Positions 21,983-39,181 of a stretch of 64,000 nt of DNA are shown in pieces (the first letter of the stretch is position 1; each line of letters starts with the position of its first letter). The position numbers and the translations under genes are program-made. The DNA comes from Bacteroidales bacterium (GTDB lineage: Bacteria; Bacteroidota; Bacteroidia; Bacteroidales; VadinHA17). Where the stretch lies: NCBI GenBank assembly GCA_049792755.1, contig JBARBF010000079.1, forward strand, positions 5,218 through 69,217, given 5' to 3'. The notes beneath the pieces are model-generated. The model was given only the letters and a program-made list of their open reading frames with translations. It did no database searches and was not told where the DNA came from.

Positions 21983-22405
21983 ATGAAAAACTGTCTCTTG
22001 ACAATTTTATCTGTTTTTTTTTCAGTACAAACAATTGAATGTCAGCAAATCAGCGAATGGAGACTTGAAAACAGAACAGGTGTATCTGCCGAAATTGGCT
22101 TATTGAAGTCCTGGACTGAAACTGGTCCTGAAATGTTATGGTTTAATCAGGAATTGCCTACCGGATTTTCTTCTGTTACTTTTGGCAATAGTTCAATCTA
22201 CATTACGGGTAATCGGGATAAAAATGACGTTCTGGTTGCGATGGATACACTGGGCAAGATAAAATGGCAAACTCCATATGGCCGTTCATGGGAACAATCA
22301 TATCCCGACAGCAGGTGTGCTCATACTGTGGAGGTAATTCATAATAAGAAGCTCTATATCCGTCACGGCAAAGTGCTCATGGCATATGATATTAAAGACA
22401 AGTAG
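21983..22405 (+). pseudogene. truncated PQQ-like beta-propeller paralogue (N-terminal ~140 aa only)
   Basis: Signal peptide followed by EWRLENRTGVSAEIG...LWFNQELPTGFSSVTFGNSSIYITG. This is collinear with the first blades of the 452-aa paralogues but stops after 140 codons. It could instead be a genuine short protein. Confidence 0.4.
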
Positions 22406-22471
22406 TTAAAATCTTTATTACCTTTGGTGGCTAATGATTAAAATGAGATTAGCAAGTATTTGAAAGATAGG

Positions 22472-23923
22472 ATGTTGCAAGTCAGATATAGGAATATTCT
22501 TGTAGTGGCAGCAGTTGTAGTTTTCGTATCTGTGCTTCTGTGGTGGTTGCTCGTTAGCCAACCTCTTCCTGTAACAGAAAGGATACCAGGTATGGATGAC
22601 CGTCCCAAACAAGAAGCACGGTCTGACTCAGTTATTATAGGTCAGTTCTTTGACACGCTTGGGACTATGGATGCAGCAATTCCCGGAGACTGGCCCAGAT
22701 TCAGAGGGAAAGATCTTGATAATATCAGCAAGGATACTACACCACTCTCAGAATCATGGGATACCTCAGGACCTGCAATAATCTGGAGAACAACGCTTGG
22801 AGAAGGATATGCCGGCCCTTCAGTTCATAACGGCAGAGTTTATCTTCTTGACTATAATGAAAGAAAGAAAGCTGACGCACTCAGATGTTTTTCTCTTTCT
22901 TCAGGAAAGGAACTATGGCGAAGATGGTATTATGTTGATTTGAAAAGAAATCATGGTTACTCCAGAACTATACCTGCTGTAACAGACAAATATGTCGTCA
23001 CAATTGGTCCACGATCGCATGTTATGTGTGTTGATCCTGTCAATGGAAACATGTTATGGTCACATGATCTTGAAAAAGAGTTTGGTATCAGTGGAACAGA
23101 GAAGGGAAGGATCACACCTGATTTCTACACAGGTCAATGTCCCCTGATTGATAACGATGTAACTGTTCTGGCCCCCGGGGGGAAAGCATTGATGATAGGT
23201 GTGGATTGTGCCTCAGGCAAAATAGTATGGCAGACCCCTAACCCCGACTCCCTCAGGATGTCCCATGGTTCTATCATGCCAATGGTGATTCATGATAAAC
23301 GAATGTATGTATATAATGCGGTTGGAGGTGTCTGCGGTGTTTCTGCCGAAAAGCCAGATCTGGGCAAGTTATTGTGGATTACCACTGAATGGAGCCCTGC
23401 AACAACTGCAGCCTCTCCCCTTTTTCTTGGAAATAATGAAATAGCTGTCTTTGGGAGTTATGGAGCCGGTGGAGCAAGAATATCAATAAATTATGACGGA
23501 TCAAAATATTCAGCAACTGTCAGGGAACAGCATAAGGCAACCAATGGCCTTGCCAGCGATCAGCAGACACCTGTAATTATAGGTAATTACATATGGAGTG
23601 TTCTGCCTGAGAATGCAGGTGCATTGAAAAAGCAGCTGGTTTGTTATAAGAAATCTGATCTTTTGACAGCTGTCTGGTCTAGCGGAAAAGAAAACAGATT
23701 TGGACGGGGACTGGGTCCATACATTGTAAGCGGAGATAAACTATATCTTCTTGATGATGACGGAAACCTTTACTTTTATAAGATGGATGAGAATAAGGTC
23801 ATGTTAATTGCCAGCCATAAGGTAATAAAAGGCATAGAAGCTTGGGGTCCGATGGCGATCGCAGGTAAATACCTCATTCTGAGGGATGCAAGGAATTTAC
23901 TCTGTCTTAATATTGGTAAATGA
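22472..23923 (+). CDS. membrane-anchored PQQ-like beta-propeller repeat protein
   Basis: One N-terminal TM (ILVVAAVVVFVSVLLWWLLV). The family entry motif DWPRFRGKDLDN and repeated blade motifs (GRVYLLDY, GKELWR, GNMLWSH, GKIVWQT) follow. An ATG at 22472 is preferred to the TTG at 22460. Confidence 0.75.
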   Translation: MLQVRYRNILVVAAVVVFVSVLLWWLLVSQPLPVTERIPGMDDRPKQEARSDSVIIGQFFDTLGTMDAAIPGDWPRFRGKDLDNISKDTTPLSESWDTSGPAIIWRTTLGEGYAGPSVHNGRVYLLDYNERKKADALRCFSLSSGKELWRRWYYVDLKRNHGYSRTIPAVTDKYVVTIGPRSHVMCVDPVNGNMLWSHDLEKEFGISGTEKGRITPDFYTGQCPLIDNDVTVLAPGGKALMIGVDCASGKIVWQTPNPDSLRMSHGSIMPMVIHDKRMYVYNAVGGVCGVSAEKPDLGKLLWITTEWSPATTAASPLFLGNNEIAVFGSYGAGGARISINYDGSKYSATVREQHKATNGLASDQQTPVIIGNYIWSVLPENAGALKKQLVCYKKSDLLTAVWSSGKENRFGRGLGPYIVSGDKLYLLDDDGNLYFYKMDENKVMLIASHKVIKGIEAWGPMAIAGKYLILRDARNLLCLNIGK

Positions 23924-23929
23924 ACTAAA

Positions 23930-24856
23930 ATGAATAAAAAAACTATTACATTCATGTCTGTAGTGATCATTCTCGCTTTTATAGTGTATATGATCATTGA
24001 TATTGTTAAACCTGCAGGATCAGTTAATGCTGATCCGATAATTCCGCAAGGTCAGGATATAGCCGATGCATGGAAGATCTCCGGTGAATTTAAGGTGAAT
24101 GAAGGCTCCCTCAAAGCAGTTTCTGTAGCTCCATCAGGAAAAATTTATCTCGGTGGTGATTCATTTGTATCCTGCTATGACATTTCCATGAAGCTTATCT
24201 GGAATGTGAAAGCTCCCTATCCTGTTACCTCGCTTACGAACTGGGGCGACTCAATTTTTGCATCAACTTCTGAACAGATTCTGGTAATGAGTACTGACGG
24301 CAGAATCTTGAATGAATGGGGACCATTTGAGGATAGCTGTTTGATCACTTCTGTAGCCGCGAACGCAAAATATTTTGCTTTTGCAGATGCAGGAAATAAA
24401 ATAGTTTACGTTCTTGACAAAGGTGGTGAGGTTAAAACGATGATTGGTCAGAATGATAAACACTTTGTTATTCCAAGTCCTTATTTTGAAGTTGCTCTGG
24501 ATAAAAGCAATAATCTTTATGCGGCAAATACAGGCTTGCATCGCATCGAAACTTATACAATTGACGGGGTCTTAAAAAGTCAGTTTGGTGAAGCAGGTAT
24601 CGGCCCCGGAGCTTTTTGTGGCTGTTGTGCCCCACCTCATTTCGCGCTTATTCCTCAAGGCTTCGTGACATCAGAAAAAGGAATTAACAGGATTAAAATT
24701 CTAAATAAAAGTGGTGAATTTGTTGAGTATGTCAATTCAAAGAATAACTTTATTAAATCTGTGCCTCTCGCTCTTGCTTCTGCCGATGGAGTTACTATTT
24801 ATGCAGCCAATCCCGGTGATTCTAAACTTTATGTTTTTAACCGAAAAACCCCCTAA
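23930..24856 (+). CDS. membrane-anchored NHL/six-bladed-propeller-like protein
   Basis: 308 aa with one TM (FMSVVIILAFIVYMIIDIV). Repeated short beta-blade motifs are present (KIYLGGD, NKIVYVLD, NNLYAANTG, VTIYAANPG). It also has an unusual GPGAFCGCCAPPHF segment. It starts 6 nt after the upstream stop. Confidence 0.6.
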   Translation: MNKKTITFMSVVIILAFIVYMIIDIVKPAGSVNADPIIPQGQDIADAWKISGEFKVNEGSLKAVSVAPSGKIYLGGDSFVSCYDISMKLIWNVKAPYPVTSLTNWGDSIFASTSEQILVMSTDGRILNEWGPFEDSCLITSVAANAKYFAFADAGNKIVYVLDKGGEVKTMIGQNDKHFVIPSPYFEVALDKSNNLYAANTGLHRIETYTIDGVLKSQFGEAGIGPGAFCGCCAPPHFALIPQGFVTSEKGINRIKILNKSGEFVEYVNSKNNFIKSVPLALASADGVTIYAANPGDSKLYVFNRKTP

Positions 24857-25044
24857 ATTCCACCAAGGGGGGACTTACTCTCGATCATATTTTCAGCCTC
24901 CATATTGGAGGATAGGTGATCGGAAAAAAGAAAAAATGAAGAACTTACACAACTTGTCCCGCTTAGGCGGGAGAGGTACACAGTGAAGCACAGAGAGCCA
25001 CAGAAGGTAAAAACAAGTTAAGCCCCTCATGGAGGGTTTGGGGT
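24848..25044. repeat. inverted pair of GC-rich repeats flanking ~140 bp with internal hairpins
   Basis: ACCCCCTAAATTCCACCAAGGGGGGACTTA (24848-24877) and AAGCCCCTCATGGAGGGTTTGGGGTG (25019-25044). Internal hairpins are CCTCCATATTGGAGG and CCCGCTTAGGCGGG. Confidence 0.75.
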
Positions 25045-25097
25045 GAAAACAAGGGAGTCTGATGGAATTGAATCTTAAATTTTGAATTTTGAATGTG

Positions 25098-25271
25098 ATG
25101 ACCAGAAACGAACTGCTTAAGAAACTTGGGAGATATATTCTCCTGATACTGATCGCCATAATTGCTATATCACTCGGGAAAAAGGTATCCGGCGCAAATG
25201 AATGCTCAATCTGTCCTGGTAAAGGGATTTGCAATGGAAATGCAGATTGTAATAAGTATAAGGTTCGGTAA
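25098..25271 (+). CDS. small membrane protein with Cys-rich tail
   Basis: 57 aa from the ATG at 25098. One TM (YILLILIAIIAISL) is followed by CSICPGKGICNGNADC (4 Cys). Its stop is 2 nt before the next start. Confidence 0.5.
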   Translation: MTRNELLKKLGRYILLILIAIIAISLGKKVSGANECSICPGKGICNGNADCNKYKVR

Positions 25272-25273
25272 TT

Positions 25274-25843
25274 ATGAGTGAAAGTAAAAATAAATATCAG
25301 TCAAGGCGCGACTTCGTTAAATCTGCAGGAAAGTTGATTGTGGTTTTGCCATTGGTTGTTGTGCCTGTAATACTTATAAAGAAGACCTCGGTGAAAGGCT
25401 ATGTCTGGCAGATAGATCCTTTCAAATGCACTCAATGCGGACAGTGCAAGACTAATTGTGTGCTTACTCCCTCTGCCTCCAAATGTGTCCATGCGTTTCG
25501 TATGTGCGGCTATTGCGATCTTTGCGGAGGTTATCTCAGGCAGGGTGTAAAAAGAATCAGCACCGGTGCAGAGAATCAGTTATGTCCTACGGGGGCAATA
25601 ACTAGAAAATTTGTTGAAGAACCATATTTTGAGTATACCATTAATGAAAAACTATGCGATGGCTGTGCCAAGTGTGTGAAGGGATGCGGGGATTTCGGGA
25701 ACGGATCGCTTTATATGCAGATCAGACATGACAGATGCGTCAATTGCAACGAATGTTCAATTGCCCGTACCTGCCCGTCAAATGCAATATCCAGGATACC
25801 GGCTAGAGTTGCATATTTGCCAAAAGATGCAGTTAAAAAGTAA
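25274..25843 (+). CDS. Tat-signal polyferredoxin, NapG/MauM-like
   Basis: 189 aa. Has a twin-arginine motif SRRDFVKSAG plus a hydrophobic h-region. Four Cys clusters are present: CTQCGQCKTNC, CGYCDLCGG...CPTGAI, CDGCAKCVKGC and CVNCNECSIARTCP. Confidence 0.75.
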   Translation: MSESKNKYQSRRDFVKSAGKLIVVLPLVVVPVILIKKTSVKGYVWQIDPFKCTQCGQCKTNCVLTPSASKCVHAFRMCGYCDLCGGYLRQGVKRISTGAENQLCPTGAITRKFVEEPYFEYTINEKLCDGCAKCVKGCGDFGNGSLYMQIRHDRCVNCNECSIARTCPSNAISRIPARVAYLPKDAVKK

Positions 25844-25860
25844 GTTTTTAGAATTTAAAT

Positions 25861-25960
25861 CCATTAAACACAAAGATCGCAAAGGTTGAAGAACTAAAGT
25901 CACTAAGAAGCACAAATAATATGCCCGAATTACTCCACTTTAGGGGGGAAGGGGAGCAAA
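25861..25960. repeat. degenerate CACAAAG-family copy plus partial GC-rich repeat
   Basis: AACACAAAGATCGCAAAGG...AAGCACAAA, followed by CCACTTTAGGGGGGAAGGGGAGC. Confidence 0.45.
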
Positions 25961-25995
25961 CGTTAAAAGATAAACAAAAAACGAAAACCGATTAA

Positions 25996-27261
25996 ATGAA
26001 GAAAGCCCTTCCATATATAATATTCATTTTGCTTTTATTCTGGCACGTGGCTATTATGGCCCAGGACCGGTTTCCACGTCCTGAATTTGAATCAGGTCAT
26101 GTTTATCCGACCAATCAGATGCCTGTTCCAAGAGCTCAGGTATGGGAATATTTTGACGTGGTCGTCCTAATAGCTGCACTGGCAGTAACAACCTGGCTGG
26201 CATTGAAAAAACGTTCACGACAGGGTTTGGTATGGATGTCACTCTTTTCCCTTGCATATTTTGGCTTCTACAGGGAGGGCTGCATTTGTGCCGTTGGCTC
26301 AGTTCAAAATGTATCCCTCGCATTATTTAATACAGGATATTCTATACCACTTACAGCACTTTTGTTCTTTATAATTCCTTTGTTATTTGCTCTTGCCTAC
26401 GGACGAGTTTTCTGTGCAGGAGTTTGCCCTCTCGGAGCTATCCAGGAACTAACGGGTATTAGGCCGGTCAAGCTTCCAAAATTTATTGAAATATTACTGG
26501 CAGCTGTGCCTTTCATTTATCTTGCGGTTGCAATTCTGTTCTCTTCAACTAACAGTCAATTCATTATATGCAGGTATGATCCTTTCGTTGGGATATTCAG
26601 GCTCGATGCCCCGTATACAATGATAATTTTCGGAGCTCTGTTACTTTTAGCCGGGGTATTTGTAAACAGACCATACTGCAGATTCCTTTGTCCGTATGGC
26701 GTTCTTTTAAATATTTTTTCAAGATTTGCAGGTAAGCATCTGACAATAACCCCTGCAGAATGCACAAATTGCAGGCTTTGTGAGGAGGTTTGCCCTTATA
26801 ATGCTATAATCCCTTCAAATCTGGAAGAAAGATTGGAAGAGCCGGAGAAGTCAAGAAAACATTTCATTCAGTATTTTGTTCTTGTTCCGGTATTTGCAGT
26901 CGCCGGAGCTTTATTACTCTACAACATGGCTCCTGTTTTGTCAGGAGCAAACAGTACTGTAAGACTGGCCAGAGAAATCCGGACAGAAAAGAAAAGCGGT
27001 ATTGAATCACCATTGAAAGATGTAATTGCTTATAAAGAATCGGGGAAAACTGAAACGAAACTATATAATGAAGAAGAATTAATCATCGGACGTTTCAGGA
27101 ATTATTCACCCTGGGCCGGGGCATTCCTTGGAATATCATTCGGAATAGGTATGATATCTCTGACAATAAAGAGCAGACGAACCGAATATAAGCCCAACCA
27201 GGGTAAGTGTTACAGCTGTGGCAGATGTTTTAAATATTGTCCGATTAAAGTAAAGAGCTGA
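25996..27261 (+). CDS. membrane polyferredoxin of the NapH/MauN/NosR/CcoG (CX3CP) superfamily
   Basis: 421 aa with multiple TMs. Two CX3CP motifs are present (RVFCAGVCPLGAIQE, RPYCRFLCPYGVL). Two 4Fe-4S motifs follow (CTNCRLCEEVCP, CYSCGRCFKYCP). Confidence 0.8.
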   Translation: MKKALPYIIFILLLFWHVAIMAQDRFPRPEFESGHVYPTNQMPVPRAQVWEYFDVVVLIAALAVTTWLALKKRSRQGLVWMSLFSLAYFGFYREGCICAVGSVQNVSLALFNTGYSIPLTALLFFIIPLLFALAYGRVFCAGVCPLGAIQELTGIRPVKLPKFIEILLAAVPFIYLAVAILFSSTNSQFIICRYDPFVGIFRLDAPYTMIIFGALLLLAGVFVNRPYCRFLCPYGVLLNIFSRFAGKHLTITPAECTNCRLCEEVCPYNAIIPSNLEERLEEPEKSRKHFIQYFVLVPVFAVAGALLLYNMAPVLSGANSTVRLAREIRTEKKSGIESPLKDVIAYKESGKTETKLYNEEELIIGRFRNYSPWAGAFLGISFGIGMISLTIKSRRTEYKPNQGKCYSCGRCFKYCPIKVKS

Positions 27262-27262
27262 G

Positions 27263-28957
27263 ATGAAGTTTAATTTTAATGAAAAGGATATAAGTATTCT
27301 CAAAGTTGTGAGTCATGTCTCGGGAGGGTTTGCTCTTATTGTAGCATTGACTATGATCTTCAGTCTAGTACAGCTTAAAACAATAAATCCCCTCGATAAT
27401 CCGGTATTGCTATCGGCTAAGGAACAATATGATAAGGATCCTTCGAATGCAGCCAGGGCAGAGCAGGTAAGGGCAATGGATCTGATGGCAAGGAAAGCTT
27501 ACTTCAGTTCAAGATGGCAGGTAGAGACAGGTTCCTACCTGCTTATTGCGGGAGTCGTCATCTTTATTATTTGTCAGAGAATGATCGCAGGGAGCGAAAA
27601 GCTCAAACCTGTTGTTGCTGGTACAAAACCCGACTCAGTACTGAACCGGGAAAAAAACAGAAAATACCTTATTTCAGCAGCTGCTTTTATTCTGACAGCA
27701 GCTATTGTTTCATCGTTTTTCCTGCGCGCCGATTTACCAGATATCTCAGGAAAAGCTCCTGCATCATCGAAGAAACATGAAAGTAGCAATGAAAAAGCCT
27801 CTGCACCGGATAAAACAAACTGGCCTTCTTTTCGCGGACAGGATAGTCGTGGATCAGCTGGAGGAAAAGGATACCCTACTGAATGGGATGCCGCCACAGG
27901 AAGTAATATCGCATGGAAGCTTGAGATACCTAAAAAAGGAAAGAGCTCCCCAGTCATATGGGGAGATAAGCTTTTCTTAACCGGCGCTCAGGATAAGATA
28001 TGTGAAGTCTATTGCATTGATAAAAAATCGGGAAAAATATTATGGACAGGATCTGCCTCTGATATCCCCGGCGAACCTGCTGTTTTGCCTAAAACTGATC
28101 CAGACGCCGGACTTGCTGTTTCAACAACTGCTACTAATGGGAAAGTGGTTTGTGCAGTCTTTTCAAATGGGAACCTGGTATGTTTCGATATGGATGGGAA
28201 AAAGAAATGGATGAAAAATATAGGTGTTCCCGAAAACAGCTATGGCTATGCTTCCTCACTCATGATTTATAAAGATCTTCTGCTTGTACAGTTCGACAGC
28301 AATACAAAAATTTCGCTAAAAGGAATTGATCTGGAGTCGGGTGATCAGAAGTGGGAAACTATCCGACATGGACACGCCGTTTGGTCTTCTCCTGTTCTTG
28401 CTCATTTCAGGGGAAACCCCGAACTGGTTATAAACGGAAATCCTTATGTGAGCGGATATGATCCATTAACTGGCAATTTGCTCTGGGAAGTTGAATGCAT
28501 GAGCGGAGATGTCGCACCTTCAGTAGCTGTAAACAGTACAATGGCGTACGCCGTAACTGACTATGCGAAACTGGTGGCAATTAAACCCGACAATGGCGTA
28601 TCAATTGTATGGGAAGATAATACATATACCCCCGATGTTTCAAGTCCTGTTGCTACCGATCAGTACCTGTTTGTATCAACTGGAAATGGTGATGTTGCAT
28701 GTTATAATGCGATGAAAGGAGATACTTTGTGGACACACTATTTCCAGGATCCTTTCTATGCCTCTCCTTTAATAGCGGACGACATGGTTTATCTTCTTGA
28801 CAGAAGTGGTAAGACGCATATTGTTAAAATTGGACCCACCTTCAAACTTATTGCTGAATCGGCTTTGGGTGAAGCAGCAGACTGTTCACCGGCATTTTCA
28901 GACGGTAAGATATATATCCGGGGCCGGAAGAATCTTTATTGCATTTCTAAAAATTGA
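27263..28957 (+). CDS. 3-TM-anchored PQQ-like beta-propeller repeat protein
   Basis: 564 aa. Three N-terminal hydrophobic helices and a Ser/Lys-rich linker precede NWPSFRGQDSRGSAGG and the blade motifs (GDKLFLTG, GKILWTG, GDQKWET, GNLLWEV, GDTLWTH). The ATG lies 1 nt after the upstream stop. Confidence 0.8.
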   Translation: MKFNFNEKDISILKVVSHVSGGFALIVALTMIFSLVQLKTINPLDNPVLLSAKEQYDKDPSNAARAEQVRAMDLMARKAYFSSRWQVETGSYLLIAGVVIFIICQRMIAGSEKLKPVVAGTKPDSVLNREKNRKYLISAAAFILTAAIVSSFFLRADLPDISGKAPASSKKHESSNEKASAPDKTNWPSFRGQDSRGSAGGKGYPTEWDAATGSNIAWKLEIPKKGKSSPVIWGDKLFLTGAQDKICEVYCIDKKSGKILWTGSASDIPGEPAVLPKTDPDAGLAVSTTATNGKVVCAVFSNGNLVCFDMDGKKKWMKNIGVPENSYGYASSLMIYKDLLLVQFDSNTKISLKGIDLESGDQKWETIRHGHAVWSSPVLAHFRGNPELVINGNPYVSGYDPLTGNLLWEVECMSGDVAPSVAVNSTMAYAVTDYAKLVAIKPDNGVSIVWEDNTYTPDVSSPVATDQYLFVSTGNGDVACYNAMKGDTLWTHYFQDPFYASPLIADDMVYLLDRSGKTHIVKIGPTFKLIAESALGEAADCSPAFSDGKIYIRGRKNLYCISKN

Positions 28958-31362
28958 AAACTGAAAAGACTTCTATATTGAACAATAACTGCAACTGTGA
29001 TGAGACATCAAAGGTAAATATTCCTTCGGTGGTCGAGGAGGTTGTGAACTATACCGGACGTGAATCGGATAAAGTTATTCTTATACTTCAGGAAGTACAG
29101 AAAAAGCTTAACTGGCTTCCTTCTGAAGCACTTAAACATATTTGCGAGATAACCGATATAACAGCAGGTCAGATTTCGGGTGTTTCGACATTTTATACAC
29201 AGTTCAGACATCTTCCGGTTGGAAAACATACCATAAAAATTTGTGCCGGAACTGCATGTCATGTGAAAGGCAGTCCGCTAATATCCGATGCATTTAAAAG
29301 AGTTCTTAAAATTGATGATGCCAGGAATGCTTCACCCGATAATCTTTTTTCAATTGAAGAGGTTGCATGTCTGGGCTGTTGCACACTCGCACCCGTTGTA
29401 CAGATTGATGGCAAAACATACGGGCATGTAAAACCAACCCAGGTGGATGAGATAATTAGTAACTTTCTCAATTCTGCCAGGGTAAGCGATAAAACATCCC
29501 TATCAGAACTAAATGAGGATATTGATGCTGAAATCAGGGTCGGTATAGGATCATGTTGTGTCGCCGGAGGAAGCAGGGAAATTCTCTCCGAGATAATTGA
29601 GATCAGGGAAAAGTATAATCTTAACATCAGACTTAAGCCTGTCGGTTGTGTCGGCGTTTGTAACCAGACACCCCTGATGGAAATAGTTACAGATGATAAT
29701 ATTCATTCGAGATATACAAAAGTCAGTAAACCTCAGGTTGAAGAGATCCTTCTTAAACACGTCAAACCAAGAACATTAAGAAATAAAATCAAGTACAATA
29801 TAAACGATCTGGTTGATTCCTTCCTTTCAGATGATAAAATTACGGGTCAGATCAATGTTTCTGATGGTGTAAGAGAAAAATATCTTAATAATTTTCTTAA
29901 TCACCAGGTTCATATAGCCACCCTGAACAGTGGTAATCTTTCTCCGGAATCATTTGAAGAACATGTTCTGTCGGGCGGATTTGAAGCACTTCGTAAGTGT
30001 TTTTTAGAATCAGACCAGGAATCTATTATCCATACAATCACCTCGAGTGGTTTAAGGGGAAGAGGCGGAGCAGGATTTCCGACAGGGAAAAAGTGGCAAA
30101 TCTCTATGCAATCGTCAGGCTCTACAAAGTACGTTGTATGCAATGGAGATGAAGGCGACCCGGGTGCCTTCATGGACAGGATGCTTCTTGAGTCTTTTCC
30201 TTTCAGAGTCATTGAAGGAATGATAATTGCCGGATATGCTACGGGTTCTTCTGAAGGGATTTTCTATATACGCGCGGAATACCCTTTGGCAGTTGCAAGA
30301 ATAAGACTGGCTATAAGGTTGTGCTATGAAAATAAAACTCTTGGTAACAATATTTTTGGAAGTGCTTTTTCTTTTAATATTTCAGTCTTTGAAGGCGCAG
30401 GTGCTTTTGTATGCGGTGAGGAAACAGCATTGATTGCCTCACTCGAAGGTAAACGCGGAATGCCTCATCTGAGGCCTCCCTACCCTGCTGTTAAAGGATT
30501 CAGACAGAAACCTACTCTCGTAAACAATGTTGAAACTCTTTCATTGGTTCCATGGATAATTACAAACGGAGCTGAGAAATTCGGATCTGTCGGAACAGAA
30601 AAAAGCAAGGGAACAAAAGTATTTGCGCTGGCAGGGAAGATTTCCAAAGGAGGCCTCATTGAGGTTCCGATGGGTCTGACGATACGCAAAATAGTTGAAG
30701 AGATTGGTGACGGTGTAGGAGATAACCAAATTTTTAAGGCAGTTCAGATAGGAGGTCCGTCTGGTGGCTGTATTCCTGCAGATAAAGCTGATACAGCTAT
30801 TGATTACGAAGAACTTACACGATTGGGAGCCATGATGGGTTCCGGAGGCATGGTAGTCCTCGACGACTCTGACTGCATGGTAGATATGGCAAAATATTTT
30901 CTGACGTTCACTCACAAACAATCGTGTGGAAAATGCACATTCTGCAGAGTTGGCACCAAGCACATGCTCAACATTATAACCAGATTAACTGAAGGGAAAG
31001 CAAATAATGAAGATATCAATGAACTGGAAAACCTATCAAGGCTTGTAAAAGCTGGCAGTTTATGCGGACTCGGAAAGACTGCTCCTAATCCTGTACTTAC
31101 AGGTCTTGAATATTTCAGGGAAGAATATGAGGAACATACAAAAGGAATATGCCGGGCTAAGAAATGCAGGGATCTGATTAAGTATACTGTAACTGACAGA
31201 TGTACGGGATGCACTATCTGTTCACAGGAGTGTCCTGTTAAGGCGATTCCTTTTACACCTTATGAAAGACATGAGATAAACCAGTTAATATGCACTAAAT
31301 GTGATAATTGCAGAATTGTTTGTCCTGAAAAAGCTATTGAAATAATAAATATAAATGGTTAA
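28954..31362 (+). CDS. NuoE-NuoF fusion: NADH-binding FMN/Fe-S flavoprotein (HydB/HndC-like)
   Basis: 802 aa with these domains in order: (1) NuoE-type 2Fe-2S (CAGTACHVKG...CLGCCTLAP); (2) a second thioredoxin-like 2Fe-2S (GSCCVAGGS...GCVGVCNQTP); (3) FMN/NADH motifs GLRGRGGAGFPTGKKW and VCNGDEGDPGAFMDR; (4) N3 cluster SCGKCTFCRVG...CGLG; (5) C-terminal 2x4Fe-4S (CTGCTICSQECP, CTKCDNCRIVCP). The TTG start overlaps the upstream TGA, so the start is uncertain. Confidence 0.85.
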   Translation: MKTEKTSILNNNCNCDETSKVNIPSVVEEVVNYTGRESDKVILILQEVQKKLNWLPSEALKHICEITDITAGQISGVSTFYTQFRHLPVGKHTIKICAGTACHVKGSPLISDAFKRVLKIDDARNASPDNLFSIEEVACLGCCTLAPVVQIDGKTYGHVKPTQVDEIISNFLNSARVSDKTSLSELNEDIDAEIRVGIGSCCVAGGSREILSEIIEIREKYNLNIRLKPVGCVGVCNQTPLMEIVTDDNIHSRYTKVSKPQVEEILLKHVKPRTLRNKIKYNINDLVDSFLSDDKITGQINVSDGVREKYLNNFLNHQVHIATLNSGNLSPESFEEHVLSGGFEALRKCFLESDQESIIHTITSSGLRGRGGAGFPTGKKWQISMQSSGSTKYVVCNGDEGDPGAFMDRMLLESFPFRVIEGMIIAGYATGSSEGIFYIRAEYPLAVARIRLAIRLCYENKTLGNNIFGSAFSFNISVFEGAGAFVCGEETALIASLEGKRGMPHLRPPYPAVKGFRQKPTLVNNVETLSLVPWIITNGAEKFGSVGTEKSKGTKVFALAGKISKGGLIEVPMGLTIRKIVEEIGDGVGDNQIFKAVQIGGPSGGCIPADKADTAIDYEELTRLGAMMGSGGMVVLDDSDCMVDMAKYFLTFTHKQSCGKCTFCRVGTKHMLNIITRLTEGKANNEDINELENLSRLVKAGSLCGLGKTAPNPVLTGLEYFREEYEEHTKGICRAKKCRDLIKYTVTDRCTGCTICSQECPVKAIPFTPYERHEINQLICTKCDNCRIVCPEKAIEIINING

Positions 31363-32473
31363 GCTTAAAATAGATAATACCGATTTTGAAGTCAGGGATG
31401 GAATGACTATTTTCGATATTGCGACAGAGGCAGGAATTAAAATCCCTTCCTTATGTCATAATAAGAATCTTCCTCATTACTCCTCATGTATGGTATGTAT
31501 GGTCAGGGATAACACGACCGGGAATTTTTTACCATCATGCTCAGCTCTGGCACAGAATGGAATGGACATTAATTGTACATCTGAGGAGGTTATCTTACTG
31601 AGGCGGAAATCAATTGAACTCCTGTTGTCAGAACACCGTGCTGAATGCGAAGCTCCCTGCCGGGTTGTTTGTCCTGCAGAATATAATATTCCTCTCATGA
31701 ACAGGCTGCTTCATGCCAGGGACTTTGAAGGGGCAATCAGACTTTCAATCACTCAGATTACAGATTCAGAACTGATTTGCACAGATTGCAAGGGATATTG
31801 CGAGAATGCCTGCCGGCGTAAAAAAGTTGATGTTCCGGTCTCAATAAGAAATCTGCAAATATATATTTCACAACGGAGTAAACAGGAAAACTCTGGCTTA
31901 GTTCCTGATAATTTACTTTCTTCATTTAAGAAAAGGAAATCGGAGAAACAGATTAAACGGTTTAAATCCCTCATCGGGAAACTTGAAGAAAATGAACTGC
32001 AGGAATGGTTGAAAGAATGTTCAGGTGAACTTGGACGAGCAAGGGAAATACCCGATTCTGAGGAAGCTGCCATAGAGTCGGGAAGCTGTATGCACTGTGA
32101 TTGCCGTGCTTCAGACAACTGCAATCTTCGTGATATAGCTGATGAATATTCTGTAAAAGATCCCAGGGGCAAGCTGGTAAATTCGCCCATTCAAAAGAAA
32201 ATAAATATAAATACGGGACTTATTTTTGAGAATGCGAAATGTATTAAATGCGGTCTATGCGTCAGGCTGTGTGAAGATTTGCACGAAGAACCCGGCCTTT
32301 GTTTTATAAACAGGGGATTTGTCAGCATTGTCTCGGAACCGCTTACTGAAGATTTTAACAATATTCTTAAAACCAGGAGCCAGGAGGTTATTGATATTTG
32401 CCCGACAGGGGCATTAAGTATGAAGACCCCCCAACCCACCATATGGGGAACCAAAAACCACACGGAGAATTGA
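31355..32473 (+). CDS. NuoG-N-terminal-like 2Fe-2S/4Fe-4S protein without a catalytic domain
   Basis: 372 aa. KLKIDNTDFEVRDGMTIFDIATEAGIKIPSLCH...SSCMVC is a fer2_4-type start. It continues with CEAPCRVVCPAEYNIP (GltD-N-like), CMHCDCRASDNC and CIKCGLCVRLCE...CPTGAL. It overlaps the upstream gene by 8 nt (ATGGTTAA). Confidence 0.75.
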   Translation: MVKLKIDNTDFEVRDGMTIFDIATEAGIKIPSLCHNKNLPHYSSCMVCMVRDNTTGNFLPSCSALAQNGMDINCTSEEVILLRRKSIELLLSEHRAECEAPCRVVCPAEYNIPLMNRLLHARDFEGAIRLSITQITDSELICTDCKGYCENACRRKKVDVPVSIRNLQIYISQRSKQENSGLVPDNLLSSFKKRKSEKQIKRFKSLIGKLEENELQEWLKECSGELGRAREIPDSEEAAIESGSCMHCDCRASDNCNLRDIADEYSVKDPRGKLVNSPIQKKININTGLIFENAKCIKCGLCVRLCEDLHEEPGLCFINRGFVSIVSEPLTEDFNNILKTRSQEVIDICPTGALSMKTPQPTIWGTKNHTEN

Positions 32474-32487
32474 TTAAGAGAAAGCCA

Positions 32488-32518
32488 AAGTCCTCCATTT
32501 GGTGGATTTAGGGGGTGG
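32488..32518. repeat. GC-rich repeat copy
   Basis: AAGTCCTCCATTTGGTGGATTTAGGGGGTGG. Confidence 0.7.
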
Positions 32519-32571
32519 ATGAACAGGGGAAGGGTTGATGATTAAATTGTCAAGGATTAATTTTTTAATAA

Positions 32572-33687
32572 ATGCGATATTATTTTACAATTATCCTGTT
32601 GTTTCTTCTTAATCCTGCTTCTCAGACTCAAAACGGTCAAAACGAATGGCTGCTATTCAGAGGCAAAGCTGACCTTGCTGGTAGAATTGAATCTGAACTG
32701 ACATCCTCACCCAAACTTTTATGGAGCATAAAAACCGGAGCAGCGACAAAATCATCTCCTGTTATAAGTGATGGAACTGTTTATTTTGGAAATGATAAAG
32801 GTTCACTTATTGCAGTGAGTACAGAAGGTAATGTCAGGTGGAAATATGAGGCAGGTTCGTCGATTGATGCTGCCCCGGCAATATTTGGCAATAAGATCAT
32901 ATTTGGTACAAGTGAGGGCATTCTGAAAGCTGTCGACAGGATTTCAGGTAAATTAATATGGTCGTATACCACAGATAATCAAATTGCAGGATCAGCAAAT
33001 GTGTGGATTATCGGAAACAGATCCGGAATTGTTATCGGAAGTTATGATTACTTCCTGCATTGTGTAGATCCTGAAACCGGGAAATCTCTCTGGAAAGTCG
33101 AAACGGAGAATTACATAAACGGGACTCCTTCAATATCTGGCGGTAAAATTGTATTTGGCGGATGCGATGGTATATTGCGGGTTGTGGATCCGATGACAGG
33201 TAAACAGATTGATACGATAAACATAGGGGTTTATATTGCCTCCTCTCCTGCCCTTAAGAATAATATGGCATATTTCGGAGATTATGACGGTACAAAATAC
33301 TGTGTAAACATTAAAACAAAAACAATCGTCTGGAAGATACCGGGAAGCGATGAATCAGGTTCAATAATGGCCATTCCCGCGATAGGAAATAATTCAGTTG
33401 TCATTGGTAGCGAAGATAAATATCTTTATTGCTACAACTCTTCCGATGGAAAACTGTTATGGAAATATCGTACAAACGGAAGGATTGACGGTTCAGCGGT
33501 TTTGAATTCTACAAAAATTCTTTTTACGGGTATGGATGGATATGTTTATATTCTGGGGTTAAACGATGGTAAGAAGATATGGAGCTTTAATGCAGGAACT
33601 CCGATAAGTAGTTCTCCTGCAGTTGTTAATGGCAGGTTTTACATTCTTACAGAAGATGGAAGGTTGCTTGCATTTGGTATTAAGTAG
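32572..33687 (+). CDS. secreted PQQ-like beta-propeller repeat protein (BamB-like fold)
   Basis: 371 aa with a signal peptide. EWLLFRGKADLAGR is followed by regular blades (GTVYFGND, GNVRWKY, GKLIWSY, GKSLWKV, GKLLWKY, GKKIWSF, GRFYILTEDGRLLAF). Confidence 0.8.
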   Translation: MRYYFTIILLFLLNPASQTQNGQNEWLLFRGKADLAGRIESELTSSPKLLWSIKTGAATKSSPVISDGTVYFGNDKGSLIAVSTEGNVRWKYEAGSSIDAAPAIFGNKIIFGTSEGILKAVDRISGKLIWSYTTDNQIAGSANVWIIGNRSGIVIGSYDYFLHCVDPETGKSLWKVETENYINGTPSISGGKIVFGGCDGILRVVDPMTGKQIDTINIGVYIASSPALKNNMAYFGDYDGTKYCVNIKTKTIVWKIPGSDESGSIMAIPAIGNNSVVIGSEDKYLYCYNSSDGKLLWKYRTNGRIDGSAVLNSTKILFTGMDGYVYILGLNDGKKIWSFNAGTPISSSPAVVNGRFYILTEDGRLLAFGIK

Positions 33688-33693
33688 TCGCTC

Positions 33694-33781: not shown

Positions 33782-33821
33782 GGGGTTCGTTACGAGAGGT
33801 TCATAGAGAATATCACATATT

Positions 33822-35111
33822 ATGAAAATTGTTTATCTTATAACAGGGTCGGGAGGTTCGTTTTATTGCGGTAATTGTTACCGTGATATGATATATCTGA
33901 GGGCGATCCGTAAAGTCCCCGGAACAAAAGCTACCGCTATTCCATTATACCTCCCACCTGATGGGCCGGATATTGAAACCGGCCTTGATAAAAATGTATT
34001 TTTCGGTGCCATTTCCATGTATCTCAGGGAAAAGGTGCCATTTCTAAGGAACATGCCGGTTTTTATCGACAAGCTTGTCGATTCTGCCCCTATGCTAAGG
34101 ATGGCAGCTCGCAGGGCCGGCACAACCCGTACCGAGGGACTTGAAGAGATGACACTAAATATGATCAGGGGCGAAAAGGCCTTTCCCGAAAAGGAGCTTC
34201 AGCGTCTTGTAGATTATCTCTCAAGAGACGGTATACCTGATGTTATCCACCTGTCAAATGCCCTGATAATAGGATTGGCAAGGCAGATCAAGAACAAAAT
34301 GAATGCCAAAATTGTATGCTCTCTCTTAAATGAAGATGACTGGATCAATGAAATGGCAGAACCGTTTCAGTCGCGGGCATGGCGATTAATTTCAAAAGAA
34401 GCGCCCAATGTTGATGCATTCTTAACTCCAAGTAAATATTATAAAGAGCTGTTCATTGGCAAAACCGGTATAAAGGGAGACAATTTTCATGTCGTCCCGC
34501 TTGGGTTTGATCCGGGCGATCTTTCAAAGATTGAAAACGCGGCCAAATGTCCTTCCATCGGTTATTTTTGCAGGATCAATGCTCAGAATGGCTTTGATAA
34601 GCTGGTTGATGCTTTCATTGAACTTAAAAGTAACAATGAGTTGCCCGGGTTGACTCTGCATGTTTCGGGCGGTTACACAAGTGATGACAAGCCGTTTATT
34701 AAGAAGCAGATGAGGAAAATTAAAGCTAAGGGTTATAATAATTTTATCAGAATATATCCTGAATTCCATGGCGACAGCAAGCAGGAGTTTTTCAGCAATA
34801 TAGATGTTATGAGTGTTCCTGTCAGAAAGCATGATGGATACGGACTTTATATTCTCGAAGCAAATTCAGCCGGTATTCCTGTGGTGCAGCCTGCGACCGG
34901 CGCATTCCCTGAAATTATTGAAAGAACTTCAGGCGGAATTACTTATTCCCACGACAATGTTTCCGACCTGGCAAAGAATCTTTTGATTTTGTTAAAGGAT
35001 AATGACTTACGTTTTAAGCTGGGAAAACAGGGAAAAGAAAAGGTACTGACAGAACTCTCTCTTGAAAAAATGTCCGAAGGCCTATCGAAAGTTTATAATT
35101 CTTTAACTTAA
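33822..35111 (+). CDS. glycosyltransferase, GT-B fold (GT4-like)
   Basis: 429 aa. The C-terminal EX7E-type region YGLYILEANSAGIPVVQPATGAFPEII is present. The N-terminus has an unusual GSFYCGNCYRD segment. Confidence 0.75.
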   Translation: MKIVYLITGSGGSFYCGNCYRDMIYLRAIRKVPGTKATAIPLYLPPDGPDIETGLDKNVFFGAISMYLREKVPFLRNMPVFIDKLVDSAPMLRMAARRAGTTRTEGLEEMTLNMIRGEKAFPEKELQRLVDYLSRDGIPDVIHLSNALIIGLARQIKNKMNAKIVCSLLNEDDWINEMAEPFQSRAWRLISKEAPNVDAFLTPSKYYKELFIGKTGIKGDNFHVVPLGFDPGDLSKIENAAKCPSIGYFCRINAQNGFDKLVDAFIELKSNNELPGLTLHVSGGYTSDDKPFIKKQMRKIKAKGYNNFIRIYPEFHGDSKQEFFSNIDVMSVPVRKHDGYGLYILEANSAGIPVVQPATGAFPEIIERTSGGITYSHDNVSDLAKNLLILLKDNDLRFKLGKQGKEKVLTELSLEKMSEGLSKVYNSLT

Positions 35112-35126
35112 TCTATAATATTAATA

Positions 35127-35198
35127 CCTTCGTGTTACTTAGTGCAACCCTTTGAGCGCCTTTGGGATTAATTTTTTTACCACGAAGTAACACAAAGG
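35127..35198. repeat. CACAAAG-family palindromic element
   Basis: CCTTCGTGTTACTTAGTG ... CCACGAAGTAACACAAAGG, forming imperfect inverted arms. Confidence 0.55.
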
Positions 35199-35227
35199 AA
35201 AAACTGTCAACTACTCAGATTAAAAAA

Positions 35228-35893
35228 ATGCTTTTTGTAAAAGAAATATCAAAGTCTTTCGCCCAGAGAGGTCTGGTATTGGACAATCTCTGTCTTGAAG
35301 TGGAAGAAGGTGAAACTGTTGCTATTATGGGTCCTTCAGGATCCGGGAAAACAACACTCATTAACATTATCGGATTACTTGATAAACCGGACACAGGAGA
35401 TATAAGCTTCCGGGGAGTTTCCGTTTTAAGTTTCACAGAAGATGAGGCAGCAGATTACAGGAACTTAAATATAGGTTTTGTATTCCAGGAACATTTGCTC
35501 CTGCCCTATCTTACTGTATCTGAAAATATAGCACTGCCTTTAATGGCATCAAAAAATTCATTGAAAGATATTAAAGCAAAAGAACAGAAATTAAAGGTAT
35601 TAATGGAAAGGACCGGCATTTACAGTCTCAGGGATAGTTATCCTTTCAGAATATCAGGCGGAGAGGCTCAACGGGTTGCTCTTGTCAGAGCACTGTCAAA
35701 TAATCCTTCCATTCTTCTTGCAGATGAACCGACAGGGTCGCTCGACGCAAAAAATGCTGAAAAAATGGGTGAACTTCTTGTTGAGATAAACAGAACATCC
35801 GGAATAGCAATCATTATGGCCACACACTCTGTCAACCTTGCAAACAAAATGTCAAAAACATGGCATCTTGAGGAAGGTAAATTAGTAATCTGA
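35228..35893 (+). CDS. ABC transporter ATP-binding protein (MacB/LolD-type)
   Basis: Walker A GPSGSGKTT, signature ISGGEAQRV and Walker B ILLADEPTGSLD are present. The ATG at 35228 is preferred, because the track extension from 35162 reads through the repeat. Confidence 0.88.
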   Translation: MLFVKEISKSFAQRGLVLDNLCLEVEEGETVAIMGPSGSGKTTLINIIGLLDKPDTGDISFRGVSVLSFTEDEAADYRNLNIGFVFQEHLLLPYLTVSENIALPLMASKNSLKDIKAKEQKLKVLMERTGIYSLRDSYPFRISGGEAQRVALVRALSNNPSILLADEPTGSLDAKNAEKMGELLVEINRTSGIAIIMATHSVNLANKMSKTWHLEEGKLVI

Positions 35894-38900: not shown

Positions 38901-39181
38901 AAAAAGAATTTGCTGTCATGCTGGCTGCGGGCTTTCGTACAAAAAAAATCCGGAGAATGATTTTGTCTGAACAATTGAAAATTTTGATTGCCGGGGTACT
39001 GGCAGGAGTTATTTCAGCTCTTCTTGCTACTTCATCCTCAATAAAAAATTATCAGGATATTCCCTGGTTGTATTTGTCCCTGATGATTCTTGCAATAATT
39101 TTCACAGGTTTAATTACAATGTTTCTTTCAGTGCGATCAGTTACAAAAGGTACGCTGATCGCCAGCCTGAAAAAAGAATAG
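35918..39181 (+). CDS. very large FtsX-family ABC permease (two FtsX modules, large extracytoplasmic domains)
   Basis: 1087 aa. Ten or more hydrophobic helices fall in two clusters (~480-650 and ~960-1080). It lies immediately downstream of the ATPase gene. Confidence 0.8.
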   Translation: MPRELGIIIQSIKFYKKPVLYQVLIIVLLCAVITGSLLTGNSLRQSLKKSASERLGNADILISSGIRYFDDGLVQRMKNFSDILCTGVLEATGYCQNLNSQKGAFNTHIYGIGKDFFIFQGHDSLTIKPGEIAVNKQLADYLRLKPGDDLIIRFKAVSDIPADAPFAPGGDAGMSVVMRVGSILGPAHTGDFSLSISQITPMNIFMNLSDIDSDRGSNLRINRLIIKRKNNNSFKLAADVLKHFLRLNDIGLRLRSIEKTGENEIISDRIFIDKSVLKEITDLLPMSAPVITYLGNRFDDRNRSTPYSFISALPSSLYSGIAEGNEMIINRWMANDLSAKEGDTIKLYWYSPDSLNKLIEKSSDFIVKRIVDMKGIWSDSLLMPDFPGIAGKESCSDWDAGVPIKMHQIRTKDEDYWNKYRGTPKAFISYTTGRKIWGNNFGPATSIRYPAGMTKKAIENKLNGSLDPLKMGFMMTDLSGESVKAANESVDFSTLFLSLGFFLILSSLVLLSFAVSLYFDSKRIHISVLHALGFKSSRISRLLFIEAAFIGMAGCSIGTLSGYLVNIFITRALNTVWNGAVQTDTLKAYFNLSPLLSGFFLTLITILVLMFVKVKRFLKILNKSGKEIYSIPSGRKNRFFLIISSVVTVSLFLFSLLSGSRQISFSFASGTALLLTLVLLWRQYYIGSPDTNSGRIMNRKRLLHRYYSLNPSGAVTPILFIAAGIFTLFITGVNKMNSDEKMIKRAGGTGGYLLWCENTIPVKEDMNSESGKKSFGLDNDQLSDLSFVQMKKYSGNDASCLNLNHITTPPLIGIDPDDFIAKKSFSFSKVLDIKTFKNPWQYLNIPPENNTLYGIADQTVLDWGLKLKPGDTLILRAENGQPVRVIIAAGLQSSVFQGNLLIGKENFSRYFPSVSGSQIFLADGNNALTEQYKSTLEDRLERYGTYIEKTSSRLASFYKVTNTYLSVFSVFGAFGMIIGVAGLGFVLLRNYNQRKKEFAVMLAAGFRTKKIRRMILSEQLKILIAGVLAGVISALLATSSSIKNYQDIPWLYLSLMILAIIFTGLITMFLSVRSVTKGTLIASLKKE

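Follow-up and report, generated by a model that had tools for sequence, protein, structure and literature searches.

Can electrons from NADH and reduced ferredoxin be passed from the cytoplasm to the periplasm by flavin and iron-sulfur (Fe-S) proteins alone? This question is raised by a gene cluster on contig JBARBF010000079.1 of a Bacteroidales bacterium of the VadinHA17 lineage (GenBank assembly GCA_049792755.1), of which positions 5,218 to 69,217 of the forward strand were analysed. This stretch of 64,000 nucleotides is referred to as the window, and its own numbering is used throughout. A preliminary description of the sequence had read six genes as an NADH module of the NuoEF/NuoG type that is wired to a NapGH-type membrane module and has no terminal enzyme. 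Here, it is proposed that one long operon encodes a cytoplasm-to-periplasm electron relay made of flavin and Fe-S proteins only, to which we assign a probability of about 0.5. No published description of the cluster was found in the literature. Re-reading of the sequence returned the six open reading frames (ORFs) at the coordinates and on the strand given before:

25098..25271, + strand: cys57, a protein of 57 residues with a basic N-terminus, one transmembrane (TM) helix and a tail with four Cys, compared over about 65 loci
25274..25843, + strand: NapG-like poly-ferredoxin of the twin-arginine translocation (Tat) type, 189 residues with 17 Cys, predicted to be periplasmic (Fer4 families, Pfam)
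25996..27261, + strand: NapH-like membrane polyferredoxin, 421 residues (two Fer4_5 and Fer4, Pfam)
27263..28957, + strand: TMprop564, 564 residues, three TM helices and an eight-bladed BamB-like propeller (AlphaFold2, AF2, model)
28954..31362, + strand: BfuC-BfuB fusion (BfuCB), 802 residues (Pfam, NCBIfam, alignment to NfnB/StnB)
31355..32473, + strand: minimal BfuA, 372 residues (alignment to StnC, conserved Cys and His)

Relatives were collected by a scan of one genome per species, which returned 363 stretches encoding a NapH-like relative, and the best 80 were fetched. These best 80 of 363 are metagenome-assembled genomes of uncultured Bacteroidales or Bacteroidota, except one labelled Chloroflexota, and they originate from fens, peat, soils, lake sediment and digesters. 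For the NapH-like protein alone, thousands of metagenomic relatives exist.

The 802-residue protein begins with a NuoE-type 2Fe-2S_thioredx domain (PF01257, residues 28-170), followed by a second thioredoxin-like 2Fe-2S region, the Complex1_51K and NADH_4Fe-4S domains and a C-terminal 2x[4Fe-4S] (Pfam, NCBIfam). Thereby, the cofactor motifs, the extra 2Fe-2S domain and the tail with two 4Fe-4S motifs that had been noticed in it before were confirmed. The domains that define BfuB in the Bfu family are present (PF01512, PF10589 and Fer4 families), and the BfuC subunit is found as the NuoE-like domain fused to BfuB. Compared with solved structures, residues 194-798 match NfnB best (9n5u_B, 690 bits); StnB of Sporomusa (9bov, 8oh5) reaches about 665 bits, the NfnB/StnB range being 660-690 bits, and HydB of bifurcating hydrogenases and then NuoF of complex I (about 335 bits) rank behind. 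In the alignment to NfnB/StnB all Cys motifs are in register, including those of the N-terminal 2Fe-2S and of the two C-terminal 4Fe-4S clusters. Of the earlier NuoEF/NuoG assignment the cofactor motifs and domains stand, while the module as a whole is of the Bfu type as found in Nfn/Stn and is nearer to NfnB/StnB than to NuoF. A NuoEFG module of complex I is not what is encoded here: the molybdopterin-like C-terminus of NuoG is missing, and no Nuo membrane genes (NuoBCDHI, antiporter-like) are present in window 345-55909. As the module is a Bfu core (HydBC/NfnBC-like) closest to NfnB/StnB, ferredoxin is probably the co-substrate beside NADH, and it may bifurcate or confurcate electrons between NAD(H), ferredoxin and a third partner. 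In the Bfu literature, non-bifurcating homologues are treated as lacking the clusters B2-B5 (PMC9304861). BfuCB would represent the cytoplasmic NADH and ferredoxin site; hydropathy gave neither a signal peptide nor a convincing TM segment for BfuCB or BfuA, in agreement with the cytoplasmic location assigned to both before.

The second Bfu protein shows the Fer2_4, Fer4_20 and Fer4_Nqo3 domains (Pfam) that characterise BfuA, and by its domain content the module is a member of the Bfu family. Its residues 1-175 align to StnC 3-177 and its residues 235-359 to StnC 552-676, whereas the FAD/NADPH part of StnC (about 178-551) has no counterpart and is replaced by a linker of 60 residues. Nothing follows the Nqo3 ferredoxin-like domain, where NfnA/StnC would have a MopB-like C-terminus, so that the alignment bears out that the supposed NuoG-like protein has no catalytic domain. 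One [2Fe-2S], two NfnL-type [4Fe-4S] and one NuoG-type [4Fe-4S] cluster are predicted, with Cys and His ligands that show at least 97% conservation. No GxGxxG motif is present in BfuA of the window. Lacking the FAD- and NADPH-binding domains of the NfnL/GltD type, the pair is not an Nfn/Stn enzyme, and because the FAD/NADPH-binding part and the MopB-like C-terminus are gone NADP(H) cannot be the third substrate. As predicted from these domains, BfuA is reduced to an Fe-S wire and offers no site for a substrate. The mid-potential path of Nfn is FAD-A7-A6-A3-A2-A1-B1-FMN (PMC12018979); as the module has lost its own third substrate site, the FAD/NADPH end, and has kept the cluster chain, it needs a protein partner. 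The BfuA-like proteins of two distant loci, L087 (12604-13956, 450 residues) and L091 (19964-21370, 468 residues), retain a GxGxxG/A Rossmann remnant of a GltD-type FAD domain. These forms look intermediate, which suggests that BfuA was reduced stepwise from an ancestor of the Nfn/Stn type.

The solved enzymes NfnABC from Thermococcus sibiricus (9n5u) and StnABC from Sporomusa ovata (8oh5, 9bov) thus share with this module a BfuB that can be aligned over about 600 residues with its flavin mononucleotide (FMN)/NADH site, N-terminal 2Fe-2S and C-terminal 2x[4Fe-4S], a BfuC of the NuoE type, and in BfuA the N-terminal 2Fe-2S, the two NfnL-type 4Fe-4S and the NuoG-type cluster domain. They differ in that here BfuC and BfuB are fused, BfuA is devoid of the FAD/NADPH and MopB-like parts, and the genes lie inside a membrane/periplasm operon. 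The classification of the Bfu family permits extra subunits that feed BfuA and predicts membrane-bound forms (PMC9304861). For Nuo-Bfu and Mbh-Bfu, which are predicted to be membrane-bound (Schut et al., 2022; PMC9304861), the BfuABC genes likewise lie in the middle of a membrane-complex cluster, implying a single enzyme; in contrast, a NapH-like polyferredoxin and a TM-propeller make up the membrane partner in this cluster, no ion-pumping module of complex I or Mbh is present, and the product side is periplasmic. The module may work similarly to the type 2/3 Bfu enzymes with extra subunits.

As judged by hydropathy and charge, the putative partner, the NapH-like protein, begins with a signal or anchor and spans the membrane with about seven TM helices. 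Conserved Cys residues form two CX3CP motifs (C140/C144 and C228/C232) and two ferredoxin motifs (C256-C266 and C405-C415); further conserved residues, C96, C98 and C192, lie in predicted periplasmic loops. Both CX3CP and both ferredoxin motifs are placed together with a KKRSRQG loop on one side of the membrane, which is taken as the cytoplasm from hydropathy and charge only. The E. coli NapH topology that Brondijk and colleagues are said to have published in 2004 reportedly agrees with this placement. Two CX3CP motifs (Fer4_5) combined with a cytoplasmic 2x[4Fe-4S] are the features that mark NapH/MauN proteins, with the sidedness depending on the same prediction. The 4Fe-4S motifs had been described as C-terminal and cytoplasmic: this is correct for C405-C415, while C256-C266 lies two TM helices upstream of it, and the cytoplasmic side is borne out for both. 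The NapH-like Fe-S motifs and the Bfu module are accordingly predicted to lie on the same side of the membrane, and nothing was met with that the preliminary description had named as speaking against a coupling of the two.

On the other side of the membrane, the NapG-like protein starts with a twin-arginine signal (SRRDFVK), and the 17 Cys that follow are arranged in about four cluster motifs. R11, R12, F14 and 15 of the 17 Cys are at least 97% conserved, which supports the Tat signal proposed before. The combination of twin-arginine signal and four Cys clusters is that of NapG/MauM, with the export predicted from sequence. As family labels, NapG and NapH do not hold. Against the hidden Markov models (HMMs) of NapG/MauM the protein scores 13.5 bits (TIGR00397, cut-off 178.85) and 12.1 bits (NF007012, cut-off 269), and the NapH-like protein reaches 61.4 bits (TIGR02163, cut-off 213.05) and 60.1 bits (NF007013, cut-off 234) against those of NapH/MauN. 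No molybdopterin or methylamine dehydrogenase domain, as would be expected in a NapA/NapB or methylamine dehydrogenase context, is encoded in the cluster or in window 345-55909. The small ORF cys57 is a genuine gene: its tail has the spacing C-x2-C-x5-C-x5-C, and the four Cys are kept in the roughly 65 loci together with the basic N-terminus and the TM helix. Distant homologues combine the four Cys with canonical or near-canonical Tat-type motifs (DRREFLK, DRREFLR or NRKEFLL), which argues for a folded, possibly cluster-bearing protein that faces the periplasm. Probably, cys57 is a mini Fe-S or thiol protein on the periplasmic side and a partner of the NapG-like protein.

TMprop564 was correctly seen as a propeller with three TM helices encoded inside the core; the AF2 model (pLDDT 72.6) shows eight blades and resembles BamB in Foldseek with a TM-score of up to 0.78 (normalised to the target). 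Its N-terminus is predicted to be inside and its propeller outside, in the periplasm. Few parts of the protein are as well conserved as the TM1-TM2 loop, in keeping with a specific contact. TMprop564 is encoded in all loci that reach far enough past NapH, with masked sequence hiding it in locus L065.

Poly-ferredoxins of the periplasmic Tat type together with membrane proteins containing two CX3CP motifs and a cytoplasmic 2x[4Fe-4S] are also known from NapGH, NosGH/NosR, MauMN and PceC, with a propeller partner on the periplasmic side. NosZ, NirS, MauB and ExaA are propellers as well. Unlike in these systems, the NapH-like protein contains additional TM helices and its ferredoxin domain is split, the cluster includes a dedicated NADH/ferredoxin donor in the cytoplasm, and NapA, NosZ or any other known catalytic subunit is absent. 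A NapH-like protein as a modular transmembrane conduit to varied periplasmic oxidoreductases was described for extracytosolic systems (Meheust et al., 2021; PMC8238504). However, those are defined by an FMN-binding domain flavinylated by ApbE, and neither FMN_bind nor ApbE is found in this cluster (Pfam); NuoF-like partners were reported in the same study for MsrQ-like, not for NapH-like systems. Rnf is likewise a membrane Fe-S/flavin complex that joins the ferredoxin and NADH pools, and RnfB has a TM helix, a four-Cys site and a poly-ferredoxin (weak NCBIfam matches), but no homologues of RnfA, RnfD, RnfE or RnfG are present here and the electrons would pass to periplasmic proteins rather than between cytoplasmic carriers.

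Gene order and junctions tie the two halves together. The stop codon of cys57 (25269-25271) is followed after 2 nucleotides by the ATG at 25274, and that of the NapH-like gene (27259-27261) after 1 nucleotide by the ATG of TMprop564 at 27263. BfuCB starts with a TTG at 28954 that overlaps the TGA of the TM-propeller gene (28955-28957; TTGA), and the ATG of BfuA at 31355 overlaps the BfuCB stop (31360-31362) by 8 nucleotides. These four junctions had been listed before and were found as described; the tightness does not extend to the unlisted gap between the NapG-like and NapH-like genes, which in the window is a loose 152 bp holding a short G+C-rich repeat element and which varies in relatives (median 33 nucleotides). 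The TM-propeller and BfuCB genes overlap in 51 of the 52 Bacteroidales loci, in 44 of these 52 by 4 nucleotides, and BfuCB and BfuA overlap in at least 47 of 52 (by 8, 14 or 20 nucleotides in 45). The NapH-like/TM-propeller junction measures 10 nucleotides or less in 92% of 64 loci, and the junction of the upstream genes prop487 and NHL308 in 87% of 62. The succession of TM-propeller, BfuCB, BfuA and the next propeller with overlapping genes is kept in all 52 Bacteroidales loci, and L087 and L091 also keep BfuCB and BfuA behind the TM-propeller; no separately conserved operon for the pair was met with in relatives. In the 80 Bacteroidales loci fetched the common order is prop487, NHL308, small Cys protein, NapG-like, NapH-like, TM-propeller, BfuCB, BfuA, prop371, a GT4 glycosyltransferase, an ABC ATPase and an FtsX permease. 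Because this order recurs, the operon is placed at about 22460-39181 in the window, so that the borders drawn earlier around six genes are too narrow. A weak scan gave no convincing + strand terminator in the intergenic gaps of the operon, and a promoter scan with a sigma-70 model, ill-suited to Bacteroidota, was uninformative.

G+C-rich hairpin-like elements of the pattern CCCCCTAAAT..GGGGG were observed in intergenic positions at 19781-19803, 19916-19937 and 24849-24871, and similar ones at about 25024, 25932 and 32490. The pattern has 5 exact matches against 0.13 expected by chance. Several of the elements lie within intergenic gaps of the operon, including the 152-bp gap.

For more distant relatives, a profile of prop487 was run against 1.84 billion representative proteins and the contigs of the hits were looked up. 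L087 (G+C 0.65) encodes a propeller, prop487, NHL, a protein of 69 residues, NapG-like, NapH-like, TM-propeller, BfuCB (764 residues), the BfuA-like protein (450 residues), a propeller and GT4, with overlaps at nearly all junctions. In L091 (G+C 0.445), where NapH is 35% identical, the NapH-like, TM-propeller, BfuCB (764 residues), BfuA-like (468 residues) and propeller genes follow one another and overlap. The position of the Bfu pair and the overlaps are thus kept in distant lineages down to a NapH identity of 35-41%. In L084 and L085 (G+C 0.70), the NapH-like protein and the TM-propeller form one polypeptide of 980 residues and prop487 and NHL one of 746 residues; prop487::NHL fusions were found in at least five representative clusters. 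The arrangement is genuine and has been kept across very different lineages, as a novel version assembled from known parts.

The following course of electrons is proposed, for which we infer the docking, the direction of flow, the requirement for ferredoxin and the acceptor, that is the steps from NapH docking onward. BfuCB would bind NADH at its FMN site, and its C-terminal 2x[4Fe-4S] probably binds reduced ferredoxin. Electrons would leave through the stripped BfuA, the chain of which would end at an exposed cluster as the FAD/NADPH site is deleted. This end may dock on the cytoplasmic 4Fe-4S domain of the NapH-like protein, which would be paired with the three-helix anchor of the TM-propeller and carry the electrons across the membrane. 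In the periplasm, they would be taken over by the Tat-exported NapG-like tetra-cluster ferredoxin and the four-Cys protein, and the final acceptor would be held or processed by propellers, with prop487 and NHL308 as leading candidates.

The preliminary statement that there is no terminal enzyme was unsupported and an artefact of the chosen borders, as conserved periplasmic partners flank the six genes: prop487 and NHL308 upstream, and prop371, GT4 and ABC/FtsX downstream.

21983..22405, + strand: short propeller paralogue, 140 residues with a signal peptide (ORF of 423 bp)
22460..23923, + strand: prop487, eight-bladed PQQ_2/BamB-like propeller with an N-terminal membrane anchor (Pfam PF13360)
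23930..24856, + strand: NHL308, membrane-anchored NHL-type propeller (weak NCBIfam match to the NHL family)
32572..33687, + strand: prop371, secreted eight-bladed BamB-like propeller (Pfam)
33822..35111, + strand: glycosyltransferase of the GT4 family (GT4-type NCBIfam matches only; synteny)
35162..35893, + strand: ABC ATPase (Pfam; syntenic in Bacteroidales)
35918..39181, + strand: double FtsX permease, 1087 residues (Pfam; syntenic in Bacteroidales)

In prop487, 107 of 487 residues are at least 97% conserved, including KRNHGYSRTIP, GPRSHVMC, GQCPLI, RMSHGSIMP, DQQTP, QLVC and RD. The motifs KRNHGxSRT, HVMC, GQCPLI, MSHxS, QQTP and RD persist at 29-45% identity, and in 55 representatives of this identity range H165, G166, R169, P172, Q226, P228, N261, H269, S271, T370, P371 and R475 are near-invariant. 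In the blade register these residues stand ahead of the innermost strands, and from this alone we infer that they line the mouth of the central channel; prop487 is the best candidate for a periplasmic catalytic or binding subunit. Its AF2 model (pLDDT 72, pTM 0.75) returned only generic BamB and tetrathionate hydrolase in Foldseek; together, this model and that of TMprop564 (pLDDT 72-73) match generic eight-bladed propellers of the PDB (BamB, YxaL, tetrathionate hydrolase), with no cofactor-bearing enzyme among the PDB matches. Against PDB sequences the sole match of the prop487 profile is a partial one to tetrathionate hydrolase (E 4e-6), which is a weak lead and was not adopted as a classification. 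NHL308 carries a vicinal Cys-Cys-(N/A)-Pro at residues 232-235, of which C232, C233 and P235 are at least 97% conserved; this CC(N/A)P is invariant in all lineages examined, including distant contigs with G+C from 0.35 to 0.70. Thiol-based or oxyanion-directed chemistry at prop487/NHL would be a guess. In prop371, by contrast, conservation of at least 97% is limited to 21 of 371 residues, nearly all of them G, W or P, and as only structural residues are conserved it is likely a scaffold. In all loci its gene comes next after BfuA or, if the locus lacks the Bfu pair, after the TM-propeller. The BamB cut-off (TIGR03300/NF008351, 285.2) is reached neither by TMprop564 (67.7 bits) nor by prop371 (132.4) or prop487 (30.2), and with 52, 70 and 22 bits they also remain far below that of the dehydrogenases dependent on pyrroloquinoline quinone (PQQ; TIGR03075, 480), so that the propellers appear to share the BamB fold only. 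No CxxCH motif is present in any protein of the cluster, and FMN_bind, ApbE, molybdopterin and hydrogenase domains are absent from window 345-55909. The 140-residue propeller is probably what a deletion has left, and its presence in the cluster varies; relatives have at its position a gene of about 1.2-1.4 kb (full-length paralogue) or none.

Several observations weigh against this relay as an obligate unit with a respiratory function. The Bfu pair is absent from seven Bacteroidales loci, in which the TM-propeller is followed directly by prop371, and from L084 and L085, which otherwise keep the cluster. The Bfu-negative clade has not lost the cytoplasmic Cys motifs of NapH. As the rest is kept without the pair, the relay works with another donor, and docking of BfuA on NapH is not obligatory. 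In the Bacteroidales cys57 proteins the RR pair is degenerated to R-N or R-x, which makes their export route uncertain. The propeller models match only the cofactor-free BamB and tetrathionate hydrolase and point to no acceptor, and a purely respiratory role does not account for GT4 and ABC/FtsX. The seven Bfu-negative loci form one clade nested among Bfu-positive lineages in a neighbour-joining tree (no support values), which suggests a single loss in a Bacteroidales clade. Changes in NapH, NapG or the TM-propeller that track this loss were limited to a few point substitutions, with no large change. Since two lineages keep everything else, the Bfu pair is an accessory donor and not part of the core; by gene content, the invariant core consists of the NapG-like and NapH-like proteins and the TM-propeller, to which prop487 and NHL are usually added. 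In analogy to NapGH, the alternative donor in Bfu-negative loci is possibly a quinol. The proposed wiring of an NADH-side module to a NapGH-type module is upheld by the conserved order, the overlaps and the distant contigs, while the Bfu pair is dispensable in some lineages.

The flanking genes could instead speak for a non-respiratory role, in which the reducing power serves the building or repair of the envelope and keeps periplasmic thiols or metals reduced, for instance the NHL Cys pair, and in which the propellers are BamB-like scaffolds that work with the glycosyltransferase and the ABC/FtsX exporter. GT4, ABC ATPase and FtsX are syntenic with the redox genes in Bacteroidales, and ABC/FtsX are also adjacent in L084/L085, where they precede the prop487::NHL fusion. 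BamB, which the propellers resemble, is a scaffold protein, and prop371 conserves structural residues only. Another member of the NapH family, CcoG, has a role in maturation as a cupric reductase. Furthermore, NHL propellers in electron-transfer clusters were read as adhesion or stabilising factors (bioRxiv 10.1101/2022.05.06.490989). However, a complete bifurcation-type NADH/ferredoxin module would be a heavy investment for a maintenance flux, the family-wide polar pocket of prop487 looks like a substrate site, and known disulfide-relay proteins (DsbD/CcdA type) are not present. An envelope role is accordingly considered unlikely, at perhaps one chance in several.

Regarding the direction, flow through the proposed relay is most likely outward, with NADH and reduced ferredoxin from fermentation being re-oxidised together (confurcation) on a periplasmic oxidant. 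The opposite would be that a donor of low potential in the periplasm gives up its electrons to the propeller/NHL proteins, from which they run through NapG and NapH to the Bfu module, where they are bifurcated to NADH and reduced ferredoxin. Bfu enzymes are reversible, Nfn/Stn physiologically pass electrons from a mid-potential donor to NAD+ and ferredoxin (PMC12018979, PMC9304861), and all features of BfuB needed for bifurcation are present. Such a donor, however, would need a potential near -400 mV, the cluster encodes no hydrogenase, formate dehydrogenase, CO dehydrogenase, haem or molybdopterin domain, and the hosts appear to be fermenters, judging by nearby genes for a glycyl-radical enzyme, glycoside hydrolase and rhamnose, and fermenters need sinks and not sources; inward flow is therefore regarded as quite improbable. 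That two unrelated units merely share an operon, a NapGH-like quinol dehydrogenase for the propellers and a soluble Bfu enzyme with a diffusible carrier encoded elsewhere, would agree with the loss of the Bfu pair alone without large sequence change in NapH, NapG and TM-propeller and with E. coli NapGH being a quinol dehydrogenase (Brondijk et al., 2002, as cited in PMC8238504), but is quite improbable in view of the overlapping frames with which the pair is inserted between the TM-propeller and the following propeller even at 35-41% NapH identity, of a BfuA without catalytic or nucleotide domain, and of the absence of a candidate soluble partner encoded nearby.

Some analogies were rejected. 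An arrangement like MauMN with methylamine dehydrogenase (propeller and small Cys-rich subunit) does not apply, as the small protein is a TM/Tat-type four-Cys peptide and radical-SAM or amine dehydrogenase genes are absent from the window cluster. A system like that of N2O reductase (propeller, NapGH, ABC) was dismissed, since His-rich CuZ-type motifs, NosZ and NosDFY are missing and the ABC transporter is of the FtsX type. NapL from the epsilonproteobacterial nap operon was not used as a precedent for a propeller beside NapGH, its fold not being given in the paper.

Downstream of FtsX, window 39189-44167 holds a second propeller/NapH unit. Two PQQ_2 propellers of 452 residues on the - strand (39189-40547 and 40572-41930) face a NapH-like protein of 648 residues (42221-44167, Fer4_5), the N-terminal domain of which has a CuA-like motif H...C-x3-C-x3-H, CHVWCGPMHAFE, and weakly matches only CuA domains of cytochrome oxidase subunit II (E about 0.03). 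The first of these propellers also follows FtsX in L061, L071 and L075. In L091 the NHL gene is absent, and a radical-SAM-like protein and an extra propeller are encoded between the NapG-like and NapH-like genes (12338-13426). In L084 (1447-6029), ABC/FtsX are preceded by two large secreted proteins with putative metal-binding repeats of the MopE type, the first of which also has right-handed beta-helix and NosD-like regions. Elsewhere (P0364, P0370, P0376, P0388), members of the prop487 family are fused to an alpha/alpha toroid resembling squalene-hopene cyclase, to HEAT repeats or to a BlaR1-type M56 membrane domain, and genes for toroid domains adjoin the L091 cluster (683-3491).

As for the hosts, a glycyl radical enzyme resembling pyruvate formate-lyase is encoded near the cluster in the window (16506-19725, with its activase) and in several Bacteroidales loci; the unrelated high-G+C loci L084 (21200-22241) and L085 (16552-17593) have one as well, and this may be coincidence or a metabolic link. 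A TetR regulator with a HlyD/MFS/OEP efflux set (44235-48917) is followed by a rhamnose utilisation block (48937-55909; RhaA, RhaT, FGGY kinase, GH78 rhamnosidase), and this fits a polysaccharide-fermenting host.

In its widest form, the proposal would describe a new class, a membrane-bound confurcating oxidoreductase in which a Bfu core for NADH and reduced ferredoxin is joined by a haem-free, possibly quinone-independent Fe-S wire of NapH-like, four-Cys and NapG-like proteins to a new periplasmic propeller/NHL vicinal-dithiol reductase, serving as an external sink that replaces H2 production in fermenters of anoxic wetlands across several phyla; this is put forward tentatively and is doubtful as a whole. 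The parts that the cluster provides are well defined: a minimal BfuA that occurs naturally, a fusion of NapH with a propeller, a four-Cys mini-protein of the Tat type and an NHL domain in which a vicinal Cys pair is invariant. Should the coupling prove real, the Bfu family would extend to an enzyme with its third substrate across the membrane, and low-potential electrons would be exported with flavin and Fe-S cofactors alone. The cluster may let cells pass electrons from fermentation across the membrane without haem proteins. The organisms that carry it are uncultured Bacteroidales that abound in fens, peat, soils and lake sediments; it occurs also in contigs of unknown lineage and differing G+C. 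As the carriers are abundant, the cluster recurs and NapH-like relatives number in the thousands, a new electron sink of this kind would bear on carbon and electron flow in methane-producing wetlands.

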